NCBI GenBank assembly: GCA_018897295.1
Contig: JAHILA010000009.1
Span: 3,154-67,153 of the forward strand
Source: Patescibacteria group bacterium
GTDB taxonomy: Bacteria; Patescibacteriota; Minisyncoccia; RBG-13-40-8-A
DNA length: 64,000 nt
Direction: 5' to 3'
Part shown: one piece after another, positions 3,320 to 47,723 of the stretch
Numbering within the stretch: the first letter of the stretch is position 1
Layout: each line of letters starts with the position of its first letter
Translations under genes and position numbers: made by a program
Notes under the pieces: generated by a model
What the model was told of the DNA's origin: nothing
Databases searched by the model: none
The model's input: the letters and a program-made list of their open reading frames with translations, nothing else

Positions 3320-3884
3320 TTTCATCAATTAATCCGTAATCTTTCGCTTCTTCAGCAGACATATAATAGTCGCGGTCGCTGTCTTTTTCCACTTTATCTG
3401 TTTTTTGGCCAGTATGCTTGGCCAAAATTTTATTTAATTTCTGCTTGATTTTCAAAATATGTTTTGCGGAAATTTCAATATCGCTCGCCTGGCCGCCTGC
3501 CTCGCCCATAACTTGATGGATCATTACTTCGGAATTAGGCAAAGCCATCCTCTTTCCTTTTGCGCCTGCTGCCAGAATTACTGCTGCGCCAGAAGCAGCC
3601 ATGCCTATGCAAACCGTTGAAATGTCTGATTTTACAAATTGCATTGTGTCATAAATCGCCATAGTTGAAGTCACGCCTCCTCCTGGACTATTAATGTAAA
3701 TTAAAATATCCTTTTTAGGATCCTGATTTTCTAAAAACAATAATTGCGCAATCACTGAATTTGCTACAATATCATCAATCGGACCGCCTAAAAAAATTAT
3801 CCTGTCTTTTAACAAGCGGGAGTAAATATCATAAGCCCTTTCTCCATATTGCGATTTTTCAATAACTGTTGGTATTAAATTCAT
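3300..3884 (-). CDS. clpP: ATP-dependent Clp protease proteolytic subunit
   Basis: Ser-His-Asp region ...[33 protein letters not shown]. 194 aa. Lies immediately downstream of tig, the conserved tig-clpP order. Confidence 0.9.
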
Positions 3885-7099: not shown

Positions 7100-7933
7100 T
7101 TATTCTTTCTCGTTTAATTTCTCAACTATATTTTCTGCTTTTGCCAATCCTTCCTCGCTACCAATATCAGTCCATAAACCGCGGTGGACAAATGCCAATA
7201 ATTGTTTTTTCTCTGCCAGCAGCGGAAAAATACATTCTTCAATGGCAAATGCCTCGCCTTCTTTCTTGGCGCGTATACATTTTGTCTGTAAAAGCTGCGG
7301 AGACAAAACATAAAAACCAGCATTAACATATCCAGAATATTGATATTCCGGATCTTCTTGGAATTCCACTACGCGATTATTCTTGGTCTTAACCAAACCC
7401 ATGCCTTTGACATTTTGATCATAATAAACTGCCATTGCGCCCAAAATTTCTTCATATGAAACCCTTTTTCTTAAAGGAGAGATTCCCGAGGTAATACTTC
7501 TCACAAATGATGAAGAAGAAAAGAATTTCGGTTCTGAAACATTGGTTTTATAAAATTTAATAAAGTTATTCAGGTCGAAATTACTTAAAGTATCGCCGTT
7601 CATTATTAAAAAATCCTTTTTCAAATCTTTGGAAGCTGACATTATTGCTCCTCCTGTTCCCAATGGTTTTGTTTCGACAACATATTCAATTCCCGCCACT
7701 TTTCCTATTTTTTTAGAAATATTTGCTTTTGGATCTTTGATTTTCAGATATTTTAAAATCTCTTCTGCTTTATAGTGGAGACTCAAACAGATATCATCAA
7801 ATTTATATTTTTTCAATAAATCCAATTGATATTCCAATAATGGTTTCCCTTTTATTTTAATCAGGGATTTGGGTATATTTTTCAATTTTCCAGGCAGGTC
7901 GGTTTTACCTCCTGCCAAAATAATGACTTTCAC
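7100..7933 (-). CDS. Sugar-phosphate nucleotidyltransferase (NTP_transferase family, RmlA/GlmU/ManC-like). GTG start.
   Basis: N-terminal MKVIILAGGKTDLPGKL...KPLL signature of nucleotidyl transferases. Confidence 0.7.
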   Translation of the reverse strand: MKVIILAGGKTDLPGKLKNIPKSLIKIKGKPLLEYQLDLLKKYKFDDICLSLHYKAEEILKYLKIKDPKANISKKIGKVAGIEYVVETKPLGTGGAIMSASKDLKKDFLIMNGDTLSNFDLNNFIKFYKTNVSEPKFFSSSSFVRSITSGISPLRKRVSYEEILGAMAVYYDQNVKGMGLVKTKNNRVVEFQEDPEYQYSGYVNAGFYVLSPQLLQTKCIRAKKEGEAFAIEECIFPLLAEKKQLLAFVHRGLWTDIGSEEGLAKAENIVEKLNEKE

Positions 7934-8074
7934 CCCGTACTAGATTTTCGACATATTTATGTTAGTTTTGTCGAAAATCAATTAATATTTGTAATTATAA
8001 TAATCTATTATTGATTTATCATGCCCCGATTGCGGTCCCGATAAATCGGGACCAGTCGAAAATTCAGTACGGGG
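7933..8074. repeat. MITE-like palindromic element bounded by ~20-bp inverted repeats (CCCCGTACTAGATTTTCGAC / GTCGAAAATTCAGTACGGGG) with internal hairpins
   Basis: 18/20 inverted-repeat match at 7933-7952 and 8055-8074. Internal TTTTCGACA-N15-TGTCGAAAA repeat and GGTCCCGA-TAAA-TCGGGACC hairpin. A related element sits at 46117-46186. Confidence 0.6.
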
Positions 8075-8149
8075 TTCATGCCCAGAGTTAATTTTAACTC
8101 TGCAAAATAAAAAGTCAACCCTATTTGTCGACTTAGTGGACTTGGCGAG

Positions 8150-8206
8150 AATCCCTGCCCGCCAAAGCTGCACTTGGCGCTGCGGGCGGGGAACTCGCGT
8201 CTCAAT
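8150..8206. repeat. GC-rich imperfect long hairpin (CCTGCCCGCC...GCGGGCGGGG) immediately 3' of tRNA-Ala
   Basis: Same motif family as the yraN insert. On the minus strand: GCGAG-TT-CCCCGCCCGCAG-[CGCCAA-GTGCAGCT-TTGGCG]-GGCAGGGATT-CTCGC. Confidence 0.6.
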
Positions 8207-25758: not shown

Positions 25759-25803
25759 TTATCCACAGAACAACCTTGACATTAATCTTTTTGATGATAT
25801 ACT
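25759..25803 (+). promoter_or_regulatory. Sigma70-type promoter (TTGACA-N16-TATACT) preceded by a DnaA-box 9-mer TTATCCACA
   Basis: TTATCCACA at 25759-25767. TTGACA at 25776-25781. TATACT at 25798-25803. Confidence 0.55.
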
Positions 25804-37513: not shown

Positions 37514-37770
37514 GACATTTTTATGTATCCGTCCGAAATTATCTTTTCTACATAATCTTTTCTTTTTAATTTTTTCAACCTTTGTTCTATCCATCTGGCA
37601 GTTTTTAAATTTGCGTATTCTTGCGAAAAAACTAATACAGGATTTTCCATCCGATTAGTAGTTTGAGTGTAGCCATGATCATGTTGTTTTATTCTTCTTA
37701 TTAAATTACTCGTGCTACCAATATAGAATTTATTATTTTCATCTTTAAGTATATAAACGTATGCTTTCAT
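37492..37770 (-). CDS. GIY-YIG nuclease family protein (YhbQ-like). The annotated 3' end overlaps tRNA-Arg by ~22 nt.
   Basis: YVYILKDENNKFYIGSTSNLIRRIKQH GIY-YIG motif. 92 aa. Confidence 0.6.
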   Translation of the reverse strand: MKAYVYILKDENNKFYIGSTSNLIRRIKQHDHGYTQTTNRMENPVLVFSQEYANLKTARWIEQRLKKLKRKDYVEKIISDGYIKMSPSWYNG

Positions 37771-37789
37771 AAATATCTGCTCCGACGCT

Positions 37790-37875
37790 CCGATTTTTAT
37801 GTCGGAGGTCGGAGCCCCGTACCCCCGACATTATGTCGGGGCGTCGGGGTTTCACCATAGGGGCGAAGAATTCAA
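37790..37875. repeat. Cluster of nested GC-rich hairpins (GCTCCGAC..GTCGGAGC, CCCCGACA-TTA-TGTCGGGG)
   Basis: Perfect 8-bp GC stems between the GIY-YIG gene and the small ORF at 37959. Confidence 0.5.
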
Positions 37876-38249: not shown

Positions 38250-39404
38250 TCAAAATCCAATCAGATAATAAAATCCCAGCCCGAATAAAACGATTGCTTC
38301 AATTAGATTTAACCATGTCATTGCTTTACTTGAAGCAATTTTAATGTTCATTGTAAAAACAGCAATCAAGAAAACAATAATCTCATCAATCATGTAAAAC
38401 AATAAATATAGCGCTATGTAAAAAATATATGCCCCAACTGAAACTTGCGCTTTCGCCAACAGCCCGGCAAAAAGAACAGGAATAATAGCCGAACAAGGAA
38501 ACTCAACAATTGTAATCACAATTGCAAAAATAAAAATACTTATTAAAATTGCCCATAATCCCCGAGACTCCTTGAAACTTTTTTGTATTTTTGAAGAAAA
38601 TTTATTTACCAAGCCATTGTTGTTCATATCACAAGCTGGCCCGTATTTCCTGTATTTTAAAAATTGTTTTAAGAAATAAATCCCGCCCATAATCCCCAAG
38701 ACGCCGACAAAAATATTCATTATTTTCAAATAAGGGCCAAGAAAATAAAACAATTGATACCATAAACCGATTAAAATCCCATAAACAATAGTTGTAGTCA
38801 AAATAAAAGTTCCGCCAAAAAACAAAATCTTCTTTCTGGAACGCAAAATTATAACCAATCCCAGAATCAAGACCAACGCGCCCAGAGAACAAATATTAAA
38901 TCCGTCAAAAAAACCCAGAATTGTCGCCTGCATCAATAAAGAATATTTGCTCAAATCCACTTTGCCAATAATCGGTAAGCTTATCTTTCTCTTGTCCGTC
39001 AAAGTCCCATTTGATGGGACAAAGGAGGATAATTGTTTTTTTATCGAGTCCTCAATTTGTTTTCCAATCCCATTCTCATTATCAAATCCAGGAAAAAATT
39101 CATCGCCAACAAAAGTTAATGGAACCAAACCAATATATTGCTCCAAATTATATTTATTGCAAAGATCAATTAATTCTTTACGGCAATTTGCTTGCGAAAT
39201 TAGATGACGATTAAATTTCACATCAGGGTATTCGGGTTCAATTTTATCCAAAAATGTATTTTCTGCTTTGCAATGAAGACAGGTTTCTGAATAGAAAAAA
39301 TTTACTTCCAGTTTTGGTGTGTTGGTCTGCGCTTTCGCAAGAACAGGAAGTACAAGCAATACTCCTATTAAAACCAAAGTAGCTGAAAACAATATTTTCC
39401 TCAT
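38250..39404 (-). CDS. Membrane protein: thioredoxin-like CxxC domain fused to a polytopic DsbD/CcdA-like transmembrane domain
   Basis: Signal/TM helix, CLHC motif, then at least 6 TM helices. Confidence 0.5.
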   Translation of the reverse strand: MRKILFSATLVLIGVLLVLPVLAKAQTNTPKLEVNFFYSETCLHCKAENTFLDKIEPEYPDVKFNRHLISQANCRKELIDLCNKYNLEQYIGLVPLTFVGDEFFPGFDNENGIGKQIEDSIKKQLSSFVPSNGTLTDKRKISLPIIGKVDLSKYSLLMQATILGFFDGFNICSLGALVLILGLVIILRSRKKILFFGGTFILTTTIVYGILIGLWYQLFYFLGPYLKIMNIFVGVLGIMGGIYFLKQFLKYRKYGPACDMNNNGLVNKFSSKIQKSFKESRGLWAILISIFIFAIVITIVEFPCSAIIPVLFAGLLAKAQVSVGAYIFYIALYLLFYMIDEIIVFLIAVFTMNIKIASSKAMTWLNLIEAIVLFGLGFYYLIGF

Positions 39405-39450
39405 ACTTTTTATACTACACCAGATTTAAAAATATTTCCAATTTTAAAAG

Positions 39451-39499
39451 TTATCCACAGAAACCAACATTGACTTTCAGTTTTCTTTCGGTATATAAT
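39451..39499 (+). promoter_or_regulatory. Promoter (TTGACT-N18-TATAAT) preceded by DnaA-box 9-mer TTATCCACA
   Basis: TTATCCACA at 39451-39459. TTGACT at 39470-39475. TATAAT at 39494-39499. Confidence 0.5.
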
Positions 39500-39510
39500 T
39501 ATATTAAGAT

Positions 39511-40962
39511 ATGCTTACAAAAAAACAACAGCAAATATTGGAATATATTAAAAAATGCATAAAGAAAAATAACTACTCTCCTTCTCTTAAAGAAATAGCG
39601 AGACATTTTAAATTATCTTCTGCATCGGGCATTCATCAACACGTTGAAGCATTAAAATTAAAAGGGTATTTGAATAAATTTGAAAACCACCCACGAACAA
39701 TTCAAATTGAAAAACATGAAAGAATGATTAATATTCCAATATTGGGATTAATTGCAGCAGGACAACCGATAGAAGCAATTGAGGATAAAGAAACAATCGC
39801 CATTCCACAAAACAAAATTCCTCATTCCGGAAAATTTTACGCATTACGCGTAACCGGAAACAGTATGATTGACGAAAATATAAATGACAACGACATTATC
39901 TTGGTTAAACAACAAAATGTAGCCGAAAATGGACAAAAGATAGTGGGACTCATTGATAACAACGAAGCAACGTTAAAAAAATTCTATAAAGAAAAAAACT
40001 ATATTCGACTACAGCCAGCTAATAAAAATATGAGTCCGATTATTATTAATAAAAATCAAAATTTTAATATTCAAGGAGTAGTTGTTGATGTAATAAAAAA
40101 CGAACAAGATTTAACAGCCACTGAAACATTGCCAATTTCAAAAATTCAACAATACGACACATTGCCATTAAATGAAATTATTTGCGGTGATTGTGTTAAT
40201 GTCTTAAAAAAAATACCAGATAATTCAATTGATATGGTAATTACATCCCCCCCTTACGATAATGTTCGAACATATAATGGATTTAGTTTTAATTTACACG
40301 ACACGGGTAAAGAATTATTTCGCGTTCTTAAAGATGGCGGAATCGTAGCAATGGTTATACAAGATCAGACAAAAAACTTTGGTAAATCGCTCACGTCATT
40401 CAAGACCATTGTTGACTGGGTTGATAATATCGGATTTAAGCTTTTCGAGACTGTTATATATAAAAAACACGGCGCCGAAGGCGCGTGGTGGACAAAAAGA
40501 TTTCGAGTTGATCATGAATACATCCCTATTTTTCTTAAAGGAGAACGCCCGGCATATTTTAATAAAGAACCACTTAAAATTCCATCCAAACACGGAGGCA
40601 AAACCATGACCGGATGTGCTACACGACTAACTAATGGCAAAACATTAAAATCAAAAAAGGTCTTTATTAATCCAATGAAATGCAGGGGAACATTATGGGA
40701 TTATACTACATGTGGCGATGGCACTAAATTAAAACACCAACATCCTGCGACGTTTCCAGATAAAATTCCCTATGATCTTATACAATGTTTTTGTCCATTA
40801 AATGGCGTGGTATTGGATCCATTTGTGGGAAGTGGCACATCTGTATTGGCAGCCATCCAATTGAATAAAAATTATATTGGAATTGATATCTCTAAAGAAT
40901 ATTGTGATTTAACCAAAAAAAGAATCAAAGAAGAGGGATCAATTAATAGAAAATTATTTTAA
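39511..40962 (+). CDS. LexA-like repressor (winged HTH plus S24 peptidase) fused to a beta-class N6A/N4C DNA methyltransferase
   Basis: N-terminal ~200 aa carry a LexA-type HTH and S24 motifs (GNSM ... ILVKQQ). C-terminus carries ITSPPYDN (motif IV) before DPFVGSGTS (motif I). Confidence 0.65.
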   Translation: MLTKKQQQILEYIKKCIKKNNYSPSLKEIARHFKLSSASGIHQHVEALKLKGYLNKFENHPRTIQIEKHERMINIPILGLIAAGQPIEAIEDKETIAIPQNKIPHSGKFYALRVTGNSMIDENINDNDIILVKQQNVAENGQKIVGLIDNNEATLKKFYKEKNYIRLQPANKNMSPIIINKNQNFNIQGVVVDVIKNEQDLTATETLPISKIQQYDTLPLNEIICGDCVNVLKKIPDNSIDMVITSPPYDNVRTYNGFSFNLHDTGKELFRVLKDGGIVAMVIQDQTKNFGKSLTSFKTIVDWVDNIGFKLFETVIYKKHGAEGAWWTKRFRVDHEYIPIFLKGERPAYFNKEPLKIPSKHGGKTMTGCATRLTNGKTLKSKKVFINPMKCRGTLWDYTTCGDGTKLKHQHPATFPDKIPYDLIQCFCPLNGVVLDPFVGSGTSVLAAIQLNKNYIGIDISKEYCDLTKKRIKEEGSINRKLF

Positions 40963-41943
40963 TAATTTTCTATTGTCAATAGTATATTCTATCGCCAATC
41001 CACTAGTCATCGCCCAAGACAATGGATTTTTTTTAATCATAAATTCAAAATTTCTATTATTGGGCACAATATTTTCTTTTGTAAATTTATAAGTTTTAAA
41101 ATTAGACCATTGCCAATTTTTTGATACATATGTCCATTTTGTTAATTTAGACAACATTTTTAAAAATCTTTCCGACTTCTGTTTTTCTTCATCATTAATA
41201 CTGTAATAATTTTTCATTTTTATTATATTAACGAATTCCCCTTTAGAATTGGATATTTTGATTTTGTCGTTTCTTTTCTTGTTTTCACTTATATCACTAA
41301 TCTCAAGAAAAAAATCTTTTAACGCAATCATTAAATTGTGTATAGAGTAATGTTTATTCAAAAAGATTTTATTCAATTCATTTTCCCTTGATTCTGCGTT
41401 TAAATATTTTAACCAATCGATACAATTTTCCGGATATCCAAATAAATTTTTAAATACGCCATCCACATATAATAATGGACAAATTGCTGATTCGGGAATA
41501 GTAAATTTCTTTTTTGATCCTATTATTCCAATAAGCATATGTATTGTGGCTAATGGATATTTTAATTTAAAATTTTTATATCCATCATAATTTCTTAAAT
41601 TATTGGGTTGTATACAATTTTTAAAATTATCCCAATTTAATGGTCGTTTATTTTTATTAAATTGAACCATGTGATGCCCGATGCTTCGTATATTTTTTCT
41701 GAAAATTTCCATATCCAAAAATATGCAATCTCTAACGGAAATATTGTTATCCAACAACATCACTTTTCCGTCATAAAATCCTCTTATCTTCCAACCTAAA
41801 AAATGAGACATAAATAAACCGCATAGTAAACCATCTGCGTCTGGACTCAAAATACAATCGTGATTTTTCTCTAATATCCACGGATGATCTAAAATAATTT
41901 TTCGATAATCAATTTTTTCTATCATGTTTTTATAATACATCAC
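40954..41943 (-). CDS. Hypothetical protein, a candidate cognate restriction endonuclease convergent with the methyltransferase
   Basis: ORF only. Convergent and overlapping arrangement with the MTase gene. Confidence 0.3.
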   Translation of the reverse strand: MMYYKNMIEKIDYRKIILDHPWILEKNHDCILSPDADGLLCGLFMSHFLGWKIRGFYDGKVMLLDNNISVRDCIFLDMEIFRKNIRSIGHHMVQFNKNKRPLNWDNFKNCIQPNNLRNYDGYKNFKLKYPLATIHMLIGIIGSKKKFTIPESAICPLLYVDGVFKNLFGYPENCIDWLKYLNAESRENELNKIFLNKHYSIHNLMIALKDFFLEISDISENKKRNDKIKISNSKGEFVNIIKMKNYYSINDEEKQKSERFLKMLSKLTKWTYVSKNWQWSNFKTYKFTKENIVPNNRNFEFMIKKNPLSWAMTSGLAIEYTIDNRKLLK

Positions 41944-42020
41944 ACCTCCTCTCTTGGCAAACGATTTATTGTGTAGTATAATGATTTTATAAAAAATAAA
42001 TTAACCAGTAAAATTAATAC

Positions 42021-42287
42021 ATGTTAGGAAAAATCAAGAAAAAGAAAATTATAGGAGAACATAAAGTTCATGAAACCGACACTGGCTCGGCTGATGTTCA
42101 AATTGGAATCCTAACCGAGGAAATTGCCAAATTGGCAGCCCATCTTAAAAAACATCCAAAAGACAACCACTCCAGGCGAGGCCTTTTGGGAATGGTTTCG
42201 AAAAGGAAAAAATTACTTGAATGGCTGAAAAACGACAATGAAACGCGCTACAAAAAAGTGATTAAGTCATTGGGATTGAAAAAATAA
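42021..42287 (+). CDS. rpsO: 30S ribosomal protein S15
   Basis: HSRRGLLGMVSKRKKLLEWL motif. 88 aa. Confidence 0.9.
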   Translation: MLGKIKKKKIIGEHKVHETDTGSADVQIGILTEEIAKLAAHLKKHPKDNHSRRGLLGMVSKRKKLLEWLKNDNETRYKKVIKSLGLKK

Positions 42288-42288
42288 T

Positions 42289-42801
42289 ATGAGTATTATT
42301 AAAAATAAAGAGCAACGAGTAGGGGTGTTTATGGATGTCCAAAATATGTATCACTCGGCAAAAAATATTTACCAGGCCAGGGTGAACTTCCGTGAAATTC
42401 TGAAAACCGCAGTTGCAGGAAGAAAATTAATCAGGGCAATCGCTTATGTTGTAACCACTGAAACCGGCGAGGAGAAAGCGTTTTTAGAAGCTCTAACTAA
42501 GTCAGGAATAGAGGTGAAGAGCAAAGATTTACAGATATTCCCAGGCGGGATGAAAAAAGCGGACTGGGATGTTGGCATGGCGGTCGATGCAATTAAATTA
42601 AGCGAAAAACTGGATTGCGTTGTCTTGGTAACTGGAGATGGAGATTTTGTTCCATTGATAGAATATTTACAGGCAAACGGGCAGCAAGTAGAAGTAATTG
42701 CTTTTGAAAAAAGCGCTTCAAGCAAATTAAAGGAAACAACTGATGATTTTACTGACTTGGGCAAAAGTCCGGGGAAATATTTAATAGGAATAAGAAAATA
42801 A
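42289..42801 (+). CDS. NYN-domain (LabA-like) protein inserted between rpsO and pnp
   Basis: VGVFMDVQN ... VVLVTGDGDFVPL motifs. Confidence 0.6.
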   Translation: MSIIKNKEQRVGVFMDVQNMYHSAKNIYQARVNFREILKTAVAGRKLIRAIAYVVTTETGEEKAFLEALTKSGIEVKSKDLQIFPGGMKKADWDVGMAVDAIKLSEKLDCVVLVTGDGDFVPLIEYLQANGQQVEVIAFEKSASSKLKETTDDFTDLGKSPGKYLIGIRK

Positions 42802-45927: not shown

Positions 45928-46116
45928 AACCGGTTTACCATGAGCGAAGCGCCTTAAGCGCTGAGTCGAATGGGGATAACTTGTTTAGAACATAATCCAA
46001 AGAAAACAAATCTAGTTCATCGTCAAGGCTAAAATAAGCTAATTTTGGCTCTAAAAACAGGATGCCAAGCAAAAACCTTGATATTGACTAAATTCTAAAA
46101 ACTTATCCACAACATG

Positions 46117-46186
46117 CCCCGTAGTGAATTCTCGACTGATGCAGGGCAGCATAATAATTTTAATTAGTCGAGAATCTACTACGGGG
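46117..46186. repeat. Second copy of the CCCCGTA..GAATT.TCGAC inverted-repeat element, ending 1 nt before the comM start codon
   Basis: CCCCGTAGTGAATTCTCGACT (46117-46137) pairs with AGTCGAGAATCTACTACGGGG (46166-46186) around a 28-nt AT-rich loop. A TTATCCACA box lies at 46103-46111. Confidence 0.6.
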
Positions 46187-46187
46187 T

Positions 46188-47723
46188 ATGAACAAAGTTT
46201 TTTCAGCAGCTATAACTGGCCTTGAAGCTGAACTCATAGAGGTGGAGGCGGATTTATCATCCGGTCTCCGCTTTTTTAGTATTGTCGGACTGCCGGACAA
46301 ATCAGTTGAAGAGTCCAAGGAGAGAATTGCTGCAGCAATAAAAAATAGCGGAGCAGAACCTCCGCACAAACAAAATAAAAGAGTAATTATTAATTTAGCA
46401 CCGGCTGATTTAAGGAAGGAGGGTTCAGCTTATGACTTGCCTATTGCTTTAAGCTTTCTTTTATCGTCAGGGCAGATAAAATTCGACGAGAAAGATAAAT
46501 TATTTGTCGGTGAATTGGCTTTGAATGGCGAGATCAGAAGAGCTAATGGGGTTTTGCCGATTTGTTTAATGGCAAAAGAAAAGGGAATTACCAATGTCTT
46601 TGTTCCGAAATCAAACAGCAATGAAGCAAGATTAGTAAGAGATATAAATATATTTCCCATCGAGTCATTAGTAGAACTTATTGCTTTTCTGGAAAATAGA
46701 ATTGAAATCAAACCTCTGGAGCCGTTTGGCGAGGAATTTTTAGAAGGATTTGAAATCGGATTCCAGCCAAGTGTTGATATGGCTTATATTAAAGGACAGG
46801 AAAACGCCAAAAGGGCATTGGAAATTGCTGCAAGCGGAAATCATAATGTACTCATGACTGGCCCGCCTGGATCAGGAAAAACATTATTGGCAAAAGCGAT
46901 TTCTACAATTCTGCCAAAAATGGCTTGGAGCGAAATCTTGGAAGTTACCAAAATCTACAGCATAGCTGGAAAACTTTCCCATAAAAAACCTTTAATCCAC
47001 CAGAGGCCGTTTCGCTCTCCTCATCACAGCGCATCAGAGGCTTCTTTAATTGGAGGCGGAGGCATTGCTAGGCCAGGAGAAATTACTTTGGCCCATCGCG
47101 GAATATTATTTCTTGATGAATTTCCGGAAGTGCACAGGGACGTTTTGGAAAGTTTGAGGCAGCCATTAGAAGACGGCGTAATACATGTTGCCAGAGCCAA
47201 GGCCAGTTATACTTTCCCGGCAAGATTTACATTAATTGCCGCAATGAATCCCTGCCCTTGTGGATATTATGGAGACCCTGAAAAACAATGCACCTGCAAC
47301 CAGCAGCAGATTAATAAATATCAAAGAAGGGTGTCCGGACCAATTATGGATAGGATTGATTTATATGTTGAAGTGCCGCATGTAAAATACGAAAAATTAA
47401 CTGATGAAAATATGGAGGGATCAAGCCAGACAATCAGAAAAAAAGTGGAAAAGGCCAGACAAATCCAGATTGAAAGATTTAAGGATGATAATATTGTTAC
47501 AAATTCGGAAATGAATATCCCTTTGATTAAAAAGCATTGCAGAACCGATGAGCAAGGGGAGAGATTATTGCGCAATGCAGTAAATAATCTCCATATGTCA
47601 GCGCGCGGATACCACCGCATTTTAAAATTAGCGCGTACTATTGCTGACCTTGCCGAATCACCCAGTATTACCTCGCAGCACATTGCCGAAGCCCTGCAAT
47701 ACCGGCCAAAAGTGGAAATATAG
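46188..47723 (+). CDS. comM: Mg-chelatase-like AAA+ ATPase ComM/YifB
   Basis: N-terminal Lon-like domain, Walker A GPPGSGKT, C-terminal domain. Confidence 0.85.
   Translation: MNKVFSAAITGLEAELIEVEADLSSGLRFFSIVGLPDKSVEESKERIAAAIKNSGAEPPHKQNKRVIINLAPADLRKEGSAYDLPIALSFLLSSGQIKFDEKDKLFVGELALNGEIRRANGVLPICLMAKEKGITNVFVPKSNSNEARLVRDINIFPIESLVELIAFLENRIEIKPLEPFGEEFLEGFEIGFQPSVDMAYIKGQENAKRALEIAASGNHNVLMTGPPGSGKTLLAKAISTILPKMAWSEILEVTKIYSIAGKLSHKKPLIHQRPFRSPHHSASEASLIGGGGIARPGEITLAHRGILFLDEFPEVHRDVLESLRQPLEDGVIHVARAKASYTFPARFTLIAAMNPCPCGYYGDPEKQCTCNQQQINKYQRRVSGPIMDRIDLYVEVPHVKYEKLTDENMEGSSQTIRKKVEKARQIQIERFKDDNIVTNSEMNIPLIKKHCRTDEQGERLLRNAVNNLHMSARGYHRILKLARTIADLAESPSITSQHIAEALQYRPKVEI

Follow-up and report, generated by a model that had tools for sequence, protein, structure and literature searches.

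The window, i.e. the whole stretch of DNA that was analysed (64,000 nt of a Patescibacteria contig), contains two short segments bounded by inverted repeats, each lying against the start codon of a gene. Copy A, a long-form element of 142 bp (7933–8074, minus strand), was detected by repeat search with a profile match of 89 bits and abuts a gene for an NDP-sugar nucleotidyltransferase (7100–7933, minus strand). Copy B, a short-form element of 70 bp (46117–46186, plus strand) from the same repeat search, abuts comM/yifB, which encodes a Mg-chelatase-like AAA ATPase (46188–47723, plus strand). The sequences from which an initial annotation had described these segments were all present where they had been placed. 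The pattern CCCCGTANTNNATTYTCGAC has four exact matches in the window (7933–7952 and 46117–46136 on the plus strand, 8055–8074 and 46167–46186 on the minus strand), against 0.25 expected from shuffles; with up to three mismatches there were five, a number reached in 0 of 100 shuffles. Outer arms of 21 nt were recovered at copy A and arms of 28 nt at copy B (46113–46140/46163–46190), together with the nested repeat already described in copy A (7938–7953/7969–7984). No further copies, intact or decayed, were found in the 64-kb window by nhmmer with profiles of both forms.

On the minus strand, copy A reads from a distal arm of the TGAA type (CCCCGTACTGAATTTTCGAC, 8055–8074) to a gene-proximal arm of the TAGA type (GTCGAAAATCTAGTACGGGG, 7933–7952). 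The GC hairpin GGTCCCGATAAATCGGGACC, located at 8034–8053 as described, adjoins the distal arm; family-wide its sequence is variable and its pairing is kept. Further inward lie a conserved motif CGGGGCATG (8020–8028, minus strand), corresponding to the family consensus CGCGGGGYATAAT, and a candidate promoter-like site directed toward the gene (7994–8022, minus strand; ATGATA-17-TATAAT, 10 of 12 positions matching). In a nested hairpin (7938–7984), conserved in the long-form alignment, a partial third copy of the arm (7969–7984) pairs with the inner proximal arm. Copy B belongs to a start-codon-associated short subfamily and has a distal TGAA-type arm (CCCCGTAGTGAATTCTCGAC, 46117–46136, plus strand), a loop with tgaTGCagggGCAgca and ATAATAATTTTAATTA, and a gene-proximal TAGA-type arm (GTCGAGAATCTACTACGGGG, 46167–46186, plus strand). 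A candidate −10-like hexamer, AATAAT, is present in the loop (46153–46158, plus strand), and no consensus promoter was called in copy B. As had been reported, the ACGGGG terminus stands at the start codons, at 0 nt in copy A (ORF 7100–7933, GTG) and at 1 nt in copy B (ORF 46188–47723, ATG), and the N-termini VKVIILAGG... and MNKVFSAAITG... agree with those of orthologs.

Comparison with orthologous loci revealed relatives without the element at both window positions. Copy A is missing from loci L157–L160, whose nucleotidyltransferase orthologs have 90 and 77% amino acid identity, and at L157 the unoccupied site has the sequence ...CTCTTGGTATGAAAGTCATT. The element is flanked by the 4-bp target-site duplication (TSD) TGAA on the minus strand, with a distal copy at 8075–8078 and a gene-side copy at 7929–7932; removal of copy A and one TSD copy restores ATG-AAA-GTC. 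The GTG now used as start codon (7931–7933) is composed of the terminal G of copy A and the TG of the duplication, while the original ATG, formed by the distal TSD and position 8079, is stranded at 8077–8079 (minus strand). The native promoter of the gene (8091–8118, minus strand; TTGACT-16-TAAAAT), which in L157 and L160 is found directly upstream of the ATG, has been parted from it by copy A. Copy B is missing from the comM orthologs in L152, L153, L155 and L156 (orthologs at 97, 90 and 84% amino acid identity). Its left TSD copy, CATG (46113–46116, plus strand), matches the right copy, TATG (46187–46190, plus strand), at three of four positions, and the right copy supplies the comM start codon (46188–46190). 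The proposal in the initial annotation that the repeat replaces a Shine-Dalgarno spacing was not borne out, as the empty orthologous sites (TAAAATTAACTCTTGGTATG; TTATCCACACTATG) are also without a Shine-Dalgarno sequence, which is absent from most genes of the window.

Patescibacteria (CPR bacteria) have tiny and dense genomes, and little is known of their mobile DNA or of the expression of their genes, most of which carry no Shine-Dalgarno sequence. A wider search, in public genomes and metagenomes, added many copies in other genomes to the pair in the window: at least 105 non-redundant copies at at least 85 distinct loci, nearly all in Patescibacteria; the scans required one exact arm, so that decayed copies are invisible and arm conservation is partly by construction, and several of the copies taken as independent are orthologous. 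Of the 29 loci from the genome scan, about 25 lie in MAGs of Patescibacteria; the metagenome scan gave at least 120. The host MAGs belong to the Portnoy-, Nealson-, Falkow-, Wolfe-, Berkel- and Saccharibacteria, with six matching stretches in one Portnoybacteria MAG. A solo arm in a giant-virus MAG, a single case, was treated as chance.

Two forms were distinguished, a short one of 66–97 bp and a long one of 126–144 bp, in addition to a non-coding variant of 266 bp (L008, identical to L144). About 26 to 104 nt separate the arms, whose asymmetry, TGAA versus TAGA, is fixed in 93 of 105 copies among the matches listed. ORFs within the elements are short and variable (2–42 codons only). The predicted element hairpins have energies of −52.2 and −42.8 kcal/mol (z-scores −7.1 and −9.7). 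In an alignment of 50 long forms, paired changes preserve six of the nine predicted pairs of the GC hairpin, and the complementarity of the arms survives two-sided changes as well (position 8 is CG in 36 copies and GC in 12); the arm stem contains a fixed G.U pair beside an A/C mismatch. About 40 unrelated genes are preceded by the element, among them genes for a ribosomal protein, a chaperone, a tRNA synthetase, RuvC, a glycosyltransferase and a membrane protein.

Among the matches listed, exact 4-bp TSDs flank 54 of 103 copies; an offset control gave 1 of 103. In 11 cases the duplication is 5 bp long, and its spectrum includes TATG, TATGA, TTGA, TCAA, TATA, CATA and TGAA. The family consists of small, non-coding copies (66–144 bp, the one variant 266 bp), bears terminal inverted repeats (TIRs) of 20 bp complementary at 18 of 20 positions, generates duplications of fixed length and variable sequence (4 bp, at least 12 different 4-mers), is dispersed in multiple copies (two in the window, many across genomes) and is polymorphic for presence, with clean empty sites at both window loci and at the hrcA locus. 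Both window segments are in all likelihood copies of one family of miniature inverted-repeat, non-autonomous DNA transposons (MITEs). The first option of the initial annotation, a miniature mobile element, is therefore supported by the copies elsewhere, the TSDs and the orthologous loci without element, while the empty sites refute its alternative, that the sequence originated as a lineage-specific leader conserved by vertical descent; once inserted, the element may act as a leader or a promoter.

A broader non-mobile origin, in which the segments are either a cis-regulatory leader passed on vertically or the palindromic operator of a dimeric regulator that controls both genes, would fit the palindromic arms and the position immediately upstream of start codons. 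It is extremely improbable, given that the element is missing from orthologous loci, precedes about 40 unrelated genes, varies in arm spacing over the range given above and has no match in Rfam. With the gathering scores of Rfam 15, tRNAs alone pass in the window; with an E-value threshold, the best hit over the element was a plant miRNA-precursor model at 22 bits, the gathering score of which is 122. The MITE family is previously undescribed and widespread in Patescibacteria: neither Rfam nor the literature searched contained an earlier description of it, and the literature search for MITEs in CPR bacteria, for these sequences and for start-codon MITEs returned nothing.

The long hairpins with an imperfect stem and fixed mismatch, termini that read CCCCGTAG and a GTAG near the terminus resemble REP, BIME and REPIN sequences, which are likewise abundant palindromic repeats, contain a GTAG-like motif and fold into hairpins in mRNA. 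Mobilization of such a repeat by a RAYT (Y1/HUH) transposase via single-stranded hairpins is nevertheless very improbable. Transposition of the IS200/IS605-like, peel-and-paste type is not known to make duplications, whereas variable-sequence TSDs flank the copies and excision restores reading frames; a subfamily with GTAC for GTAG is equally mobile, and no RAYT gene was seen in the fetched loci. REPINs differ from the CPR family in having neither TSDs nor true 20-bp TIRs.

TIRs combined with a TSD of fixed length are the signature of DDE transposases, and transposition would accordingly be carried out in trans by an enzyme of this type. About 1.1 Mb of fetched CPR sequence yielded neither an autonomous partner nor a transposase. 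Arm pairs lying 0.3–5 kb apart in these loci were all pairs of separate MITEs, and none of those 0.3–4 kb apart encloses a transposase; CCC[CT]GTA...TAC[AG]GGG pairs with matching flanks in the fetched loci likewise yielded separate MITEs only. In the IS1380 family the TIRs carry CC at their outer ends and the duplications are AT-rich and 4–5 bp long, and one member, ISEcp1, drives a neighbouring gene from an outward promoter. The CPR family shares the terminal pattern (CCCC...GGGG) and the duplication length (4 bp, 5 bp in the 11 cases above), and the 8-mer TAGATTCT is common to its TAGA arm and the left repeat of ISEcp1, CCTAGATTCTACGT. Outside this 8-mer the TIRs diverge, and the terminal CCCCGTA(G/C) of the CPR family has no counterpart in ISEcp1. 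A tblastn search with the ISEcp1 transposase alone in the roughly 1.1 Mb of fetched loci detected no IS1380-like transposase (E-values of 1.5 or higher), which makes for a weak test, and the resemblance to the ISEcp1 ends is limited to the 8-mer. REPs are known targets of IS110-family elements. In L022/L096 a solo arm abuts an IS110-family transposase gene, with no second MITE half beyond it. IS110 was rejected as the mobilizer, both because of this missing half and because IS110 chemistry gives no variable TSDs.

Surviving copies are concentrated exactly at translation start codons. With orthologs collapsed, a gene starts 0–3 nt from the TAGA end at 49 of 85 loci and from the TGAA end at three, among the matches listed; the tendency to adjoin start codons, noticed in the two window copies, is real and general across the family. 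Among the same matches, a gene start is found at the TAGA end of 55 of 66 long copies (four at the TGAA end) and of 11 of 39 short copies (none at the TGAA end). The gene nearly always meets the AT-rich end rather than the GC-hairpin end. Two of the three exceptions (L003_5980 and L040) carry their internal modules in reverse orientation with respect to the arms, and the gene therefore still faces the AT-rich module. Copies without an abutting gene show no bias in orientation to the flanking genes (5 versus 7), on which ground replication direction was rejected as the cause of the orientation bias. In other subfamilies the −35 and −10 boxes are occupied, and the duplication preserves the signal there too. 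Some copies are located at operon junctions; the stop codon of a co-directional upstream gene is 0–9 nt from the element in 15 of 36 copies, including ATGA stop/start overlaps. One copy forms helix P12 of an RNase P RNA. At the orthologous hrcA site, occupied in lineages whose HrcA proteins are only 75% identical across the first 110 residues, the elements change more slowly than nearby synonymous sites: they are 94–98% identical, compared to 61–78% at third codon positions and 68–82% in the upstream flanks, and they differ almost solely by paired hairpin changes. A second orthologous group is most conserved in the gene-proximal 70 nt.

At a start codon, the duplication itself restores the codon. 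With a duplication that is mostly TATG, the old ATG stays on the far side of the element and an ATG is recreated on the gene side; with the stagger one base later (TGAA or TGGA), the terminal G of the element and the TG of the duplication give a GTG at the original codon position, as in copy A. A transposon can in this manner colonise compact genomes by landing on start codons and repairing them through the duplication that it makes, in some cases with GTG in place of ATG. Gene calling is affected, because of new GTG starts, stranded ATGs and short upstream ORFs (uORFs), as are assembly, since many contigs end within the element, and comparative promoter analysis. Rickettsia palindromic elements insert in frame inside genes (PMC10969869). 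They are similar in being palindromic mobile elements that survive, through their mode of insertion, where insertions are normally forbidden; they join the protein, whereas the CPR elements stay outside the ORF, regenerate the start codon and have lengths that are not multiples of three.

The downstream gene would be expressed either from an outward promoter inside the element or by read-through of a hairpin leader. In our estimate, the chance that the signals for expression upstream of the gene come from the AT-rich, gene-proximal half is about even. This half may carry a sigma-70-like outward promoter, for which the candidate in the long form is TTAAT(C/T)-N17-TAAAAT, ending 20 nt from the terminus, and in the short form TCGACT-N16-18-[AGT]ATAAT. 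The −10 of the promoter-like site ends 20 nt from the TAGA end in 36 matches among 55 long copies, and the short-form motif is carried by the start-codon-associated short subfamily, where sister copies have it at the position of the copy B hexamer. Such matches are weak (8/12) and lie within AT-rich DNA, and promoter-like hits on the reverse strand are scattered, yet occur in most copies. Transcripts from this promoter would begin inside the element without the distal arm, and could therefore not form the hairpin of −43 to −52 kcal/mol that would otherwise bury the start codon.

At the element-bearing hrcA loci of four sequenced lineages, TTGACA-N17-TATAAT and a perfect CIRCE immediately precede the element. 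As the native promoter and CIRCE are kept, transcription reads through the element at these loci and an internal promoter is not required there. Transcripts that start at native upstream promoters and run through the element are probably also made. It is conceivable, though on balance somewhat unlikely, that the same MITE has no promoter of its own and that native read-through makes it a structured 5′ leader or intercistronic hairpin in general. The stranded old start would then open a short uORF into the distal arm, which would hold the stem unwound, while ribosomes could use the AU-rich proximal half as a standby site, or the stem could be trimmed by RNase III. Besides hrcA, this is favoured by the stop codons close upstream in 15 of 36 copies, by the presence in most copies of a uORF from the old ATG, by the arms that stay complementary through two-sided changes with their fixed G.U pair by the A/C mismatch, and by the RNase P RNA copy, whose hairpin, as helix P12, is both transcribed and tolerated. 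With −43 to −52 kcal/mol, a hairpin that ends at the start codon should, however, block initiation in essential genes, rpsL and rplF among them; the uORFs (2 to 42 codons) are not conserved, and the near-perfect conservation of the proximal 70 nt exceeds what AU-richness alone needs. The stranded ATG was rejected as the start of a conserved uORF or peptide, for the same variation in length and lack of conservation. The GC hairpin was also rejected as an intrinsic terminator, there being no T-run after it on either strand.

Correia elements have a TIR of 26 bp, duplicate the dinucleotide TA and reside in Neisseria. To our knowledge, precise start-codon sites, rebuilding of the start or a near-absolute orientation rule have not been reported for them. 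The CPR family does not belong to them, having an unrelated TIR sequence, a 4-bp TSD and hosts of a different phylum. The Correia elements (CREE/NEMIS) of Neisseria are described (PMC2649163) as MITEs of about 100–150 bp with long TIRs that are gene-adjacent and co-transcribed, can give rise to promoters at their ends and have TIR hairpins that are bound or cut by RNase III. They are the closest functional counterpart for both proposed mechanisms of expression. If the proximal half is a selected promoter or leader, the elements would be natural, portable expression modules for genetically intractable organisms; they offer a handle on the initiation of transcription and translation in CPR bacteria.

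Position and orientation could also merely reflect the non-lethal insertions of a purely selfish MITE in compact genomes, without benefit to the host, the high similarity of the copies being due to recent spread or gene conversion. The window copies are indeed young, their sites being empty in relatives at 97% and 90% amino acid identity, non-coding DNA makes up no more than about 9% of the window (5790/64000 nt), the copies in −35 and −10 boxes likewise keep the signal by duplication, and detection is biased to intact copies. Yet start-codon sites are a few percent of the non-coding TNNR sites (1701 in the window, with 59 TATG/CATA sites outside coding sequence or at starts, 25 of these at start codons) and account for 49 of the 85 loci listed, and the hrcA insertion is common to diverged lineages in which almost all changes within the element are paired. 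The selfish account is rather unlikely.

Only tentatively, and with doubt prevailing, can the family be read as a domesticated, still mobile ‘expression cassette’ that is directed to the transcription and translation start signals of CPR bacteria, modulates the downstream gene and is selected by the host. Its targets would be start codons, ATGA gene junctions and −35 and −10 boxes, each signal being preserved by the 4-bp duplication; the downstream gene would be expressed via an outward promoter or a uORF-coupled hairpin switch, and the host would maintain the element by long-term purifying selection. If so, transposition would be a routine means of promoter rewiring in minimal genomes.

Two inverted-repeat elements were found in the window (G+C content 35%). 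Copy A, a long form of 142 bp (7933–8074, minus strand), abuts the gene of an NDP-sugar nucleotidyltransferase (7100–7933, minus strand), and copy B, a short form of 70 bp (46117–46186, plus strand), abuts comM (46188–47723, plus strand). All sequences reported in the initial annotation were located at their positions. The 20-bp arms (CCCCGTANTNNATTYTCGAC) have exactly four exact matches in the window, against 0.25 expected from shuffles, and these form two inverted pairs (7933–7952/8055–8074 and 46117–46136/46167–46186). The nested repeat and GC hairpin described for copy A are both real, as are the start codons at the element ends: the first G of the nucleotidyltransferase GTG is the last base of copy A, and comM begins 1 nt beyond copy B. 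The arms within each copy are not equivalent, a difference missed at first. One reads ...GTAsTGAATT... and the other ...GTAsTAGATT..., the gene-side (proximal) arm being of the TAGA type in both copies. At arm positions 8 and 15 the copies differ from each other, yet both arms of one copy are identical. Profile searches yielded no further copies, intact or decayed, in the 64-kb window.

Clean empty sites are present in relatives for both copies. Orthologs of comM (97, 90 and 84% identity) read ...TTATCCACA(c/a)(t/a)ATGAA... without insert; the window comM itself is an exact match to Patescibacteria MAG GCA_018895295.1. Orthologs of the nucleotidyltransferase (90 and 77% identity) carry TTGACT-N16-TAAAAT-N11-ATG-AAA-GTC, and copy A lies between ATGAA and TGAAAGTC. 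The original ATG (8077–8079, minus strand) now lies stranded beyond the copy, its native promoter (8118–8091) still intact ahead of it, and the current GTG consists of the last G of copy A and the TG of the target-site duplication (TSD). Among the paired copies with these arms, identical 4-mers flank both sides in 54 of 103, compared with 1 of 103 in an offset control, and their sequence varies (TATG, TTGA, TCAA, TATA, CATA, TGAA and others). The proposal of a miniature mobile element is thus supported by terminal inverted repeats (TIRs), TSDs, copy number and empty sites; by these properties the family is certainly a MITE, only the cognate transposase being missing. The accompanying remark that the repeat replaces a Shine-Dalgarno spacing is not supported, because the empty sites and most window genes have no Shine-Dalgarno sequence. 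In another comM ortholog (L154, 87% identity, ~3590–3640), the site of copy B holds an unrelated insert of ~45 nt (TCTCGGCTACTAATTAGTAATTTGTAGACACTT), with a GTG start.

Searched with the arm pattern, species-representative genomes yielded 29 loci; some 25 of these belong to Patescibacteria MAGs (Portnoy-, Nealson-, Falkow-, Wolfe-, Berkel- and Saccharibacteria and unclassified Parcubacteria), with several loci per genome; four were solo matches in unrelated phyla, consistent with chance. The metagenome scan gave at least 120 loci. Both scans demanded one exact arm, which places decayed copies outside the sample. Once arms were paired and duplicates dropped, the matches listed contained 105 different copies, and merging of orthologous sites left 85 distinct insertion loci, so that inverted pairs of the consensus number at least 105 at no fewer than 85 loci. 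Copy lengths are bimodal, with 39 short (66–97 bp) and 66 long forms (mostly 126–144 bp; one variant of 266 bp), and 93 of the 105 copies combine one TGAA-type with one TAGA-type arm.

Abutment of start codons, noted at two loci by the initial annotation, proved general. Counting start codons of ORFs of at least 60 aa within 0–3 nt of an element end, gene starts were located at the TAGA end of 55/66 long and 11/39 short copies and at the TGAA end of 4/66 and 0/39, respectively. Per distinct locus (85 among the matches listed), this amounts to 49 against 3. Two of the three exceptions (L003_5980 and L040) have internal modules that run the opposite way with respect to the arm types. What holds, then, irrespective of arm type, is that the AT-rich module is turned towards the gene and the GC hairpin away from it. 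The usual TSD, TATG, recreates the ATG, and the arrangement seen at copy A, with a neo-GTG, is found again where the duplication is TGAA or TGGA, for instance at hrcA, a tsaE-like gene and a large tRNA-synthetase-like gene. The abutted genes are mutually unrelated (rpsL, rplF, rpmA, hrcA, clpB, ruvC, pheS-like, glycosyltransferase and membrane protein genes), and comM is abutted twice independently. The second comM copy, from another lineage (L059, 3252–3292, minus strand, and adjoining sequence), has a partly decayed distal arm and the neo-start GTG-CAC-AAA-GTA-TTT-TCA, so the beginning of comM has taken insertions more than once. Where a co-directional upstream gene is present, its stop lies 0–9 nt from the element in 15 of 36 copies, and at overlapping ATGA junctions a TATGA duplication leaves the TGA stop to the left copy and the ATG to the right.

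All but two of the start-codon short copies belong to one subfamily, with a loop made up of a small GC hairpin and then ATAATTTTAATTA. Other short subfamilies have inserted into promoter hexamers, at the TTGA of the −35 or the TATA of the −10 box, which the TSD leaves intact. At the −35 TTGA of the hrcA promoter, three related lineages each have a different small TIR element (L046, 6179–6251; L128, 1597–1665; L142, 789–887, minus strand), with TTGA duplicated in every case. One belongs to the present family, one has the TIR TCCCTCACATGAAAAT (also in L143) and one CCCTTCACCTTT (also in L124), an indication that several CCC-ended MITE families exist and have a hot spot in common.

The TSDs have little in common except a T in first and a purine in last position. 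In the window, 1701 such 4-mers occur in non-coding DNA, and TATG is found 25 times at start codons versus 34 TATG/CATA elsewhere in non-coding DNA. As few available sites are start-codon TATG, start codons are strongly over-represented among insertions. A symmetric transposase alone would not pick an orientation, and copies not abutting a gene show no bias relative to neighbouring genes (5 same, 7 opposite), which argues against a replication-linked bias. The pattern must come from a survival filter, a host function, some targeting mechanism or a combination of these.

The long-form consensus consists of the distal arm, TG, the GC hairpin, CGAAAAAGCGCGGGG(C/T)ATAAT, ~35 AT-rich nt, a partial third arm copy (TAGAATTTCGAT), a loop (ATTTAAAAT) and the proximal arm. 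Among 50 aligned long forms, two-sided changes that preserve pairing occur at six of the nine predicted hairpin pairs (one is GC in 17, CG in 14 and AU in 12), and the outer stem has a G.U pair adjoining an unpaired A/C in 50/50 sequences. Predicted RNA folds reach −52.2 kcal/mol (z −7.1) for copy A and −42.8 kcal/mol (z −9.7) for copy B, in which the AUG pairs with the stranded CAU. The element matched no Rfam family.

Several genomes carry the element at the same gene. At hrcA, five lineages have a common insertion point, orientation and neo-GTG, and the stranded ATG has drifted between them (AATGGA, AATGAA, GGTGGA); this points to a single old insertion. These elements are 94–98% identical, against 61–78% at third codon positions of the adjacent CDS and 68–82% in the upstream flank, and nearly all their differences fall in the hairpin with pairing kept. 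hrcA orthologs at 57–77% identity are without the element. In another set of orthologous copies (L053/L094/L138), the 70 nt nearest the gene hardly vary, in contrast to a diverged middle of the distal half. Among copies retaining one exact arm, the family shows signs of constraint. In a Saccharibacteria MAG, a 76-nt short form (L006, 1824–1899, minus strand), without visible TSD, is helix P12 of a bacterial class A RNase P RNA (1611–2026; Rfam RF00010, 240.9 bits), the element being tolerated there as a hairpin within an essential structured RNA.

Two mechanisms of downstream gene expression, not mutually exclusive, fit the data. That the element carries an outward promoter driving the downstream gene has about an even chance of being correct. 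The motif TTAAT(C/T)-N17-TAAAAT, its −10 box ending exactly 20 nt from the proximal terminus, was matched 36 times among 55 gene-abutting long copies, with reverse-strand matches at scattered positions; as promoters these matches are weak, and the DNA they occupy is AT-rich. In the short subfamily found at start codons the motif is TCGACT-N16-18-[AGT]ATAAT, its TCGACT being supplied by the inner end of the distal arm, and copy A has ATGATA-17-TATAAT; no consensus promoter was called in copy B. Transcripts starting inside the element would be without the distal arm and unable to fold into the hairpin, so that essential ribosomal protein genes could tolerate the element. Such a promoter would also account for why genes face one particular module, why one short subfamily is associated with start codons and why the proximal half is conserved. 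Read-through from native upstream transcription alone is a somewhat less probable explanation. Element-bearing hrcA loci retain the native promoter and a perfect CIRCE operator 13–24 nt upstream of the element, many copies sit within operons and one is part of an RNase P RNA; at some loci, then, transcription certainly passes through the element. What allows translation in that case could be a uORF that begins at the stranded ATG and unwinds the distal arm, a standby site provided by the AU-rich proximal half, or RNase III.

No transposase was found in the fetched loci. CC ends together with 4–5-bp duplications fit the IS1380 family; the ISEcp1 ends were confirmed, only the 8-mer TAGATTCT is common to an ISEcp1 end and the element arm, and the fetched loci contain no IS1380-like ORF. 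Metagenome contigs often start or stop within a copy (L035, L045, L063, L083, L086, L101 and L114, for example), so the repeat breaks CPR assemblies, which may be why a full-length partner element went unrecovered. On a Saccharibacteria contig (L022, 1356–2869; L096, 2004–3517), a solo TAGA-type arm (GTCGAGAATCTACTACGGGG), with no second arm on either side, has an IS110-family transposase gene (Pfam Transposase_20) beyond it, whose 3′ end is ~120 nt away; insertion of this gene into or beside a copy is more likely than a role as mobilising enzyme.

In function, the closest counterpart is the Correia element of Neisseria. Correia elements can create promoters at their ends and are bound or cut by RNase III (PMC2649163). 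They differ from the present family in sequence, duplication, hosts and start-codon precision. REP/REPIN identity is excluded by the TSDs. Rickettsia RPEs are likewise tolerated at forbidden places, but insert in frame (PMC10969869). The literature search returned no MITE described in CPR/Patescibacteria and the arm sequences in no relevant context, and a 2024 review of prokaryotic MITEs does not mention start-codon insertion; the insertion geometry of this family is unusual and well supported.

Elsewhere in the window, a GC-rich hairpin-forming segment of ~72 nt (8135–8205; AAAATTGAGACGCGAGTTCCCCGCCCGC...GCGGGCAGGGATTCTCGCCAAGTCC) lies directly 3′ of tRNA-Ala, flanked by a GTCCA direct repeat. 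It is missing from the orthologous nucleotidyltransferase loci L157 and L160, resembles no sequence in any fetched locus, and could be a tRNA 3′-end duplication from an integrating element. Around 39400–42300 the GC skew changes sign (cumulative minimum ~41 kb) and gene orientation flips from minus to plus, from which the window probably spans a replication origin. Perfect DnaA boxes (TTATCCACA) occur at 25759, 39451, 46103, 47724 and 54711, overall counts in the window not being significantly enriched; the box at 46103, just upstream of the original comM ATG, is conserved in most relatives compared. Beside the skew switch, a single ORF of 483 aa (39511–40962, plus strand) unites LexA DNA-binding, S24 peptidase and N6/N4 DNA methyltransferase domains (Pfam), an unusual LexA-methylase fusion. 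A short minus-strand ORF (37520–37860) with a GIY-YIG-like N-terminus (MKAYVYILKDENNKFYIGSTSNL...) adjoins a tRNA cluster, and a GC-rich palindrome run (37780–37850) lies upstream of its start in otherwise AT-rich DNA.
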